In this document: positions 13,169-14,723 of the stretch, in pieces
Layout of the letters: each line of letters begins with the position of its first letter
Position numbering within the stretch: position 1 is the stretch's first letter
UHGV virus genome: UHGV-0374425
Length of the DNA: 21,656 nucleotides
Strand: one strand, 5' to 3'
Source of the DNA: a virus
Translations under genes and position numbers: made by a program
Notes under the pieces: model-generated
What the model was told of the DNA's origin: nothing
The model's input: the letters and a program-made list of their open reading frames with translations, nothing else
Database searches by the model: none

Positions 13169-14723
13169 TTTCGCAGTATCCCCCTGAACATCGCCTTCAC
13201 CGCATCACGCTCTGTTTCGCTTATGGCCTTATTACCGTCAGACGCGCCCTCCTGGCGTGTGCCTGACGACGTTTTCCCGGAAGACGCGAACGGATCTTCA
13301 CGGGCATCACGGCGGGACAACGCTTCCAGACTGTAGTTCTGCTGCTGAAGATACAGTGCATCGCCTCCTGCCAGGGGCGGCAGGTTCTCCCGTTTACGGG
13401 CTTCATTGGGCGTGAGAAGCGTATTTTTCACCGCATCCCCCAGCGTTTTCATGCGCCGCTCACTGTCCATTCTCAGCAGCGTGGTGACATCAAATTCCGT
13501 ACTCTCGTTTTCCCCCGTTTCCAGCGCCTCATCCAGTAACAGCTCAATGGACTCAATCAGTGTCTGCAGGCACTGGGAATAATACTGCTGCTCCAGCGCC
13601 TCCACGTTGTCACTGGAAGGCGGTTGTCCCACGCCAATCTTGTAGGCCGGGACACGGAACACCGAACAGACAATTTCAGCGGTCATCTTCAGTTGTTCCA
13701 CCGTCTGCGCATCCACCGGTGAAAACGTCGTGGGGTTGTATTTTGCCCCGTTGCTCAGAATGGCCGTTTTCCCCGCATTTTCGCCTGTATACCCGCTGTC
13801 CCAGTTGCTCTTCAGTTTTTTCGCATTTTCTTCCGTAATACTGCCGGGGATCTCAATCACCCCGGACGGCCTGCCGCCATTTCTGAAAAAATACGTCGAA
13901 TTTTCCTGAATATGATGCCCCTGCGTGGCGGCCAGCCCGGCGGCATACACCGGCGGCAACCCTATAAGCGGATGAAAAAAACAGTTAAACCGGTCGTGGA
14001 TCACTTCCCGGGCAGGCACCGTCACCGCCTCAGTGATCCCGCAGTTCCGGTCCGGCGTGATGCGGTAGAACACTTCGCCGTCATCCGCCACCAGTGGTTC
14101 AACCCGGCTCCAGTCCAGAATGCGCAGTTCTTTGATCTGCCCCCGGGCGTTACGGATTCGCATGGGATACGCAGGGAAACGCGCCGGGGGGATATTGCCT
14201 GCCTCTGTCGTCGTCCCAACGCCCAGCAGAACCGTATCCAGTTTTTTGAACTGTGGCTGAACGCCAAACTACGTCACGGCAATACGGTGGTGCTGAAAAT
14301 CCGTAACGCCCGGGGGCAGATCAAAGAACTGCGCATTCTGGACTGGAGCCGGGTTGAACCACTGGTGGCGGATGACGGCGAAGTGTTCTACCGCATCACG
14401 TCAAAAAACTGGATACGGTTCTGCTGGGCGTTGGGACGACGACAGAGGCAGGCAATATCCCCCCGGCGCGTTTCCCTGCGTATCCCATGCGCATCCGTCT
14501 GCATAAGACGTAGCCGCATTTTGGCGATATCCTGGGATATCAGCGAAATACATGCAAACACCGCATGAAAGGAGAGGACGGCTTCAGGATCGGCTTTCAC
14601 GCCCTGCTGCCAGGCACCGGAAAAGGGCTCAGCCACCGCCTGAAACAGGCTGGTCCAGCCCGCCTCTCTTACGTCACGTCCTGATTTCTGGTTTTTTCGG
14701 GTTCGCCGTAAAAGGTTCCACAT
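13165..14723 (-). pseudogene. HK97-family portal protein gene disrupted by an internal inverted duplication
   Basis: N-terminal piece (14388-14723) and C-terminal piece (13165-14163; ...FRNGGRPSGVIEIPG...NAKKLKSNWDSGY.GENAGK...) both portal-like but split; the missing 17 codons (ELWLNAKLRHGNTVVLK) exist only on the plus strand. Confidence 0.75.
14056..14498. repeat. Interleaved inverted duplication inside the portal gene
   Basis: 14299-14400 is the exact reverse complement of 14056-14157; 14401-14498 is the reverse complement of 14152-14249 (exact over 89 nt); 6-bp microhomology ATCCGT at the junctions. Confidence 0.85.

Follow-up and report, generated by a model that had tools for sequence, protein, structure and literature searches.

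A portal gene apparently scrambled by two inverted template switches in the phage genome UHGV-0374425

The head module and the genes around it

The DNA analysed here, called the window throughout, is the complete 21,656-nucleotide stretch of the virus genome UHGV-0374425. Its minus strand carries a head module in the order TerL (16936-18597), a protease-capsid fusion (14935-16872), the portal, a 353-aa ORF and a head-tail connector, so that the portal gene lies at the position expected of it within the module. The major capsid gene (14935-16872, minus strand) encodes a prohead protease domain (Peptidase_S78, residues 48-152) fused to an HK97-type capsid domain (residues 386-635), and this fusion gene sits between the terminase and the portal. 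The order terminase, protease-capsid, portal differs from the classical HK97 order. A conserved 73-aa ORF (14669-14890, minus strand) that matches no family and is hypothetical in all relatives overlaps the start of the portal gene by 55 nt.

Immediately downstream of the portal lies the 353-aa ORF (12107-13168, minus strand), for which no Pfam family scored above threshold and in which a 162-bp (54-aa) unit is repeated in tandem 2.7 times at 12573-13004. The copy number of this repeat varies among relatives, in which the ORF has either 353 or 407 aa. The stop of the portal gene and the downstream 353/407-aa ORF overlap by ATGA. In complete E. coli genomes RefSeq/PGAP describes the portal and the repeat ORF as a single 'frameshifted' pseudogene (window 12107-14723; 1346-3930 in locus L001 and 3875-6297 in locus L002). 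A frameshifted portal can be dismissed, because the gene calls of phages BP-4795 and phi330 and of the metagenomes show two overlapping ORFs of 454 aa and 353/407 aa. The pseudogene label of PGAP looks like an annotation artefact, and it is unrelated to the rearrangement of the portal gene described below.

The tail genes are interspersed with cargo. An OmpC-like porin is encoded at about 4178-5341 (minus strand), and a block at about 1214-3226, between tail genes L and K, contains a ClpP-like protease, an Arc-family repressor, YlcI/YnfO and a Bro-N/P22 antirepressor; the latter block is missing in several relatives (e.g. L028, L032, L036). At its right end the window is colinear with known genomes. 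Positions 21366-21656 diverge sharply from E. coli CP55_Sichuan (CP55), from LZSFT34 and from the metagenome contig k141_125694 and resemble other E. coli prophages, with 99.3% identity to DETEC-S792; this stretch marks a mosaic boundary within the lysis region. The window contains phage genes only and no host flank, so that the word prophage, used in the initial annotation of this DNA, is an assumption.

Anatomy of the rearranged portal stretch

Inside the portal gene, 443 bp (14056-14498) stand in place of a 249-bp stretch, designated R, that is intact in every relative. The sequences that flank the scramble sit 249 bp apart in E. coli LZSFT34, and R can be rebuilt exactly from pieces of the window by joining 14056-14157, the reverse complement of 14250-14298, and 14401-14498. 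Conversely, the 443 bp decompose exactly into R1-103, the reverse complement of R1-242, and R152-249, with a net gain of 194 bp, which is no multiple of three. R1-103 and R152-242 each have one copy in either orientation, and the 48 nt of R104-151 are present in inverted orientation only. The segments, the junctions between them and the open reading frames that result are listed in Table 1.

Table 1 Segments and junctions of the portal scramble, the reading frames that result from it, and the inverted piece at the start of the window (positions in the window)
Feature	Positions	Strand	Remarks
R1-103 in native orientation, left arm of repeat 1	14056..14158	-	ends in ACGGAT (14152-14157) and T (14158); colinear with the intact references L001, L002 and L009
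Inverted extra copy of R152-242, 91 nt	14159..14249	+	together with 14152-14158 the left arm of repeat 2; exact decomposition
R104-151, 48 nt, inverted only	14250..14297	+	encodes the native portal residues LWLNAKLRHGNTVVLK on the plus strand
Inverted extra copy of R1-103, right arm of repeat 1	14298..14400	+	repeat search and decomposition
R152-249 in native orientation, right arm of repeat 2	14401..14498	-	repeat search and decomposition
Junction 1, forward R103 to reverse complement of R242	14158..14159	.	jump of 139 nt onto the other strand
Junction 2, reverse complement of R1 to forward R152	14400..14401	.	jump of 151 nt back; blunt, 0 nt microhomology
N-terminal portal fragment, 111 aa	14388..14723	-	107 native residues, then DVMR and stop; Pfam Phage_portal positions 2-55
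C-terminal portal fragment, 332 aa	13165..14163	-	native from residue 125; ATG made by junction sequence; Phage_portal positions 74-321
By-product ORF, 218 aa	13912..14568	+	reads through the inverted block 14152-14400
Inverted first 141 nt of the window	1..141	+	equals CP55 record 18269-18409 forward; whole-window alignment to CP55

A repeat search, supplemented by a script, defined the first pair of inverted repeats (14056-14158 and 14298-14400) as 103 nt long and 100% complementary. The second pair (14152-14249 and 14401-14498) comprises 98 nt at 99%, and the spacers of the two pairs measure 139 and 151 nt. The sole mismatch of the second pair is the T at 14158, where the script predicts a G from the partner base. 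The mismatch falls on the junction, and apart from this base the arms have not diverged at all. Across the entire 21.6-kb window there are no other inverted repeats of 25 nt or more. Folded as single-stranded DNA, the scramble reaches -197.9 kcal/mol, as compared with -85.7 ± 5.7 kcal/mol for shuffled sequences (z = -19.8), which excludes a chance origin of the inverted repeats. At junction 1 both parental sequences contain ACGGAT one base back from the join, which amounts to six of the last seven nucleotides.

The initial annotation had located both pairs of arms correctly, although the first pair is 103 and not 102 nt long, and the perfect identity it ascribed to the arms applies to the first pair and fails at one base of the second. 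That a central segment of the gene has been replaced by an inverted copy of a stretch of about 243 bp is borne out by comparison with the intact references; the part that is present only inverted measures 48 nt (14250-14297) instead of the 49 nt originally given, a figure reached only when the ambiguous T is included. The 6-bp microhomology ATCCGT, which had been assigned to the junctions, is found one base off the join at 14158/14159 and is lacking at 14400/14401.

The broken portal gene and its products

As the initial annotation had recognised, the portal is split into two ORFs, both on the minus strand, and 17 codons exist in inverted orientation only. These encode portal residues 108-124, which are missing from the minus-strand ORFs, are coded on the wrong strand and fall inside a conserved block of the portal family alignment. 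The N-terminal fragment scores 37.5 bits against PF04860, below the cut-off of 39.1, and positions 56-73 of the family are lost from the coding strand. In the sequence as written no single ORF covers PF04860 or TIGR01537 over its full length. The plus-strand ORF of 218 aa is solely a by-product of the 83 codons of portal frame in the inverted block 14152-14400. None of the three ORF products that depend on a junction was on record in an exact look-up among 153 billion gene positions.

Repair of the gene in silico yields an ORF of 454 aa that matches positions 2-321 of the 321 positions of PF04860 (270 bits, E = 3e-80) and positions 2-343 of the 343 positions of the HK97 portal equivalog TIGR01537 (348.8 bits, E = 3e-104). 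The repaired portal aligns with the solved HK97-type portals 9lbn and 8cez, to which it is homologous. As written, the gene is thus a disrupted member of the HK97 family and effectively a pseudogene. In tailed phages a dodecameric portal is required for the nucleation of the procapsid and for DNA packaging. Given this role, the split gene would be a null allele as written, and a phage with this genome presumably could not make a portal and could neither build nor fill heads.

Intact relatives

A megablast search with positions 13600-14900 as the query matched 1247 E. coli records and 92 phage records. Coverage reached at best 81%, which corresponds to the query minus 194 bp, and came in two pieces; the matching loci measure 1107 bp as compared with 1301 bp in the window, which is the intact form. 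The rearrangement is covered by none of the 1247 E. coli and 92 phage records, and neither junction is present in them. The metagenome contigs that were fetched also have the intact form, and none of the 36 fetched loci contains the 24-mers that span the portal junctions. A 26-mer across junction 1, in which the ambiguous base was entered as N, and a 29-mer across junction 2 found no exact match in the viral, genome and metagenome contig collections. A control scan of the intact join returned loci, showing that the junction scans were functional. Among 5426 complete E. coli genomes there is none with any of the junctions of the window. The comparison with the intact portal of related phages, which the initial annotation had proposed, therefore gave a uniform answer, the intact 249-bp form in every relative. 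Since all relatives have the intact form and the junctions are absent elsewhere, the portal rearrangement is, as judged from sequence comparison, private to UHGV-0374425 and derived. The 443-bp stretch is accordingly best regarded as the scrambled, derived form of an otherwise ordinary portal gene of the HK97 family and not as a functional element.

The nearest relative is a metagenome contig in ENA assembled with MEGAHIT (ERZ27268747, k141_125694), which has an intact portal and differs from the window by 1 SNP over positions 11741-19872 (about 8 kb). E. coli CP55_Sichuan differs from the window by 6 SNPs in about 18 kb outside the rearrangements. Four of these six differences are alike (C in the window, A in CP55), which raised the possibility of a mutator signature. 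This was discarded because LZSFT34 and k141_125694 share the base of the window, so that the differences are specific to CP55.

The 92 phage records include two isolated phages, BP-4795 and vB_EcoS_phi330, each of which has a 454-aa portal ORF of its own at the same place. These Stx-converting or lambdoid E. coli phages (the portal is ORF58 in BP-4795) are 98.5-100% identical to the window at the DNA level outside the scramble. The repaired ORF of the window equals their portals in length and position, and the profiles are matched end to end. The gene as written in the window differs from them by its split into 111 and 332 aa, by residues 108-124 on the wrong strand and by the net insertion of 194 bp.

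A second private junction at the start of the window

The initial annotation is incomplete, for it missed a second private inverted junction in tail gene I that bears on the choice between artefact and mutation. In the alignment of the whole window with CP55, the first 141 nt are inverted (Table 1), and from position 142 onward the window follows the CP55 record from 18262 downward, colinear in reverse. Junction 141/142 is blunt, jumps 147 nt to the opposite strand and cuts the tail-assembly gene I after residue 94. It is spanned by none of 1877 matching E. coli records and is absent from viral contigs; the left partner of the event lies before the start of the window. All three junctions found in the 21.6 kb are thus jumps to the opposite strand, over 139, 151 and 147 nt.

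By default, the largest k of MEGAHIT is 141. The inverted terminal piece has the length of this final k, and the name of the nearest relative begins with k141_, which suggests that the window may be a complete contig assembled at k = 141, beginning at a branching vertex of the graph. A generic artefact of MEGAHIT at contig ends was considered and rejected: the ends of k141_125694 and k127_5978, which derive from the same phage, are colinear with the references and bear no inverted terminal piece.

Origin of the rearrangements

In its portal part the window shows two novel opposite-strand junctions and an inverted block between direct flanks. Such a direct-inverted-direct layout with two opposite-strand junctions is the hallmark of a pair of inverted template switches, and the 443-bp structure can be read with confidence as their product. 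In the proposed sequence of events, a DNA polymerase that copies the portal gene would reach R103 and then jump 139 nt ahead to the complementary strand, beside the 6-nt inverted match ACGGAT/ATCCGT. It would copy 242 nt backwards and return by a further jump to the original strand at R152. The outcome would be an inverted middle block between inverted duplications of 103 nt and 91 nt.

The initial annotation had left the choice between replication template switching and a fold-back assembly artefact. The structure fits template switches, and mutation and artefact are both still live explanations, but an artefact in the narrow sense of fold-back during assembly is unlikely. The window contains no repeated canonical k-mer at k of at least 104. 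At such k a de Bruijn graph assembler could not invent junctions that are absent from the reads. A high-k assembler would write the path only if the junction k-mers dominated the reads, which makes a purely computational artefact improbable.

With a probability of about 0.5, and by a slight preference, the switches occurred outside the cell, and the biological phage keeps an intact portal. By this route a strand-displacing or jumping polymerase, active during amplification or library preparation (e.g. MDA), would generate chimeric molecules, and an in-vitro chimera would enter the consensus of the contig. Several observations point in this direction. Three private junctions in 21.6 kb contrast with 1-6 point differences from relatives, and the three are all of one type with similar jumps, which points to a single systematic process. 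Two of these junctions are blunt, unlike the sequenced E. coli cases. The properties of MDA chimeras (inverted junction, short jump, overlap of 0-21 nt) fit, as the short jumps are accompanied by overlaps of 6 (offset by one base), 0 and 0 nt; in addition, the arms are undiverged beyond the junction base and the junctions are absent everywhere else that was searched. Other points speak against a technical origin. An in-vitro chimera would have to make up most of the molecules at the locus, for which very few starting templates would be needed, and two other MEGAHIT contigs of the phage lack inverted ends, so that the junction at the left end is no generic habit of the assembler. Moreover, the paired switches regain the original strand, as is required by a living replicon (PMC3161906) but not by a random in-vitro chimera.

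A genuine, very recent mutation in vivo has somewhat less than an even chance, and the small remainder of the probability falls to other routes. In such a mutation the nascent strand, during replication or break-induced repair of the phage or prophage, would switch to the opposite template within one fork and then switch back. The event would be of the MMBIR or fork-stalling type, the small-scale equivalent of bacterial tandem-inversion duplications, and would create a null allele of the portal. The same episode would have included a second pair of switches, which left the junction in tail gene I. The junction k-mers must occur in the reads for a k-mer assembler to have written them, there being no repeats at k of at least 104, and a 6-nt inverted match adjoins junction 1, both of which agree with mutation. 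The paired switches restore the continuity of the strand, with two novel junctions per event as in E. coli, and clustered structural changes are known, about 10% of amplified isolates carrying further rearrangements (PMC3161906). As E. coli genomes carry 2-14 copies of the head module, the loss of one portal would be tolerable, and a co-resident phage could complement it. These arguments have to be set against the very high ratio of structural to point changes that two independent complex events next to 1-6 point differences imply, and against the lack of microhomology at two of three junctions, which is unlike the documented E. coli cases. Furthermore, the T retained at 14158 would amount to a mismatch at the 3' terminus, which a proofreading replicase should remove, and no junction is shared with the 5426 complete E. 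coli genomes or with any other collection searched. That both rearrangements are real and arose in one episode, from a low-processivity repair or replication fork that made four strand switches of about 140-150 nt over about 14 kb of a lambdoid prophage, is unlikely. It would mean that the portal and tail gene I were lost at once while every other base was left unchanged, and the window would show a prophage just inactivated by a sudden series of complex rearrangements driven by replication, a small bacterial 'chromoanasynthesis', instead of by gradual decay.

Inversion by breakage and rejoining would produce the same sequence as a double template switch. The 'staggered-break' model, proposed for inversions in Drosophila, duplicates the staggered regions in inverted orientation at both ends of the inversion. 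Applied to the portal gene, staggered double-strand breaks over R1-R103 and R152-R242 would be filled in and the fragment religated in inverted orientation. The layout X-A-(B'C'A')-B-Y is exactly as this model predicts, and the blunt join at 14400/14401 fits end joining. However, E. coli is not known to have Ku/LigD end joining, two pairs of single-strand nicks about 100 nt apart would be needed, and the 6-nt match at junction 1 would be left unexplained, so that we consider this route very improbable. A programmed invertible switch (inverton) that toggles expression of the portal is excluded. The resemblance is superficial and consists of inverted repeats of about 100 nt that flank spacers of 139 and 151 nt inside the gene; these repeats occur in no relative, as all carry the single-copy 249-bp form. 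Flipping of either spacer in silico, by an inverton or by recombination between the arm pairs, leaves stops at codon 112 or 234 of 455, and the annotation of the equivalent region in CP55 and LZSFT34 lists neither a recombinase nor an invertase.

Consequences of either origin

Whichever origin applies, a known kind of event has affected a well-known gene, and neither a new gene family nor a new element or mechanism is involved. Should the preferred technical origin be correct, the window would serve as a warning that this contig, and probably the whole assembly, carries strand-switch chimeras that make false pseudogenes. If the allele is real, it would represent a fresh and clean double inverted template switch in a bacterial prophage, with an ancestral sequence known to the base. 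It would then offer a case study for the inactivation of prophages and for the rules of bacterial junctions, one of which has a near-microhomology and the other of which is blunt. A real allele also predicts a phage that needs a portal from a co-resident relative for the assembly of its heads. With mutation at both sites, the assembly of heads and of tails would be defective, and for its spread the phage would depend on a helper or on residence as a prophage. The annotation merits a flag in which the portal is given as a pseudogene and a possible chimera and tail gene I is recorded as also disrupted.

Comparison with known rearrangements

The embedded inverted duplications, or tandem inversion duplications, of E. 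coli and Salmonella (Lin et al. 2011, PMC3161906, citing Kugelberg et al.) have two opposite-strand junctions, as has the portal scramble, and an inverted middle copy between direct copies. In E. coli, 16 such duplications with sequenced junctions display 3-30 bp of microhomology, and it has been argued that the replicon survives an initial inverted switch only when another one follows (PMC3161906). One junction of the portal scramble has a short inverted match as well, although one base back from the join. The scramble differs in scale, with 242 nt as compared with 5-43 kb, and in its other junction, which is blunt. In addition, there is no evident selection for amplification, and the central 48 nt are lost from the direct orientation.

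The inverted chimeras formed during MDA (Lasken and Stockwell 2007, PMC1855051; reviewed in PMC9984789) also share several features with the window. More than 85% of them are inverted, about 70% have an overlap of 2-21 nt and the rest have none, and the jumps typically span tens to hundreds of nucleotides (PMC1855051, PMC9984789). The window likewise contains nearby inverted joins, jumps of a hundred-odd nucleotides, overlaps of 0-6 nt and several junctions within about 20 kb. MDA chimeras are, however, normally minority molecules with a single junction, whereas the present contig is a consensus and passes through two paired junctions. The DUP-TRP/INV-DUP rearrangements of humans (e.g. PMC4352052) differ in that they use pre-existing inverted repeats and extend over kilobases to megabases, whereas no pre-existing repeat here exceeds 6 nt; the direct-inverted-direct topology that results from template switches is common to both.
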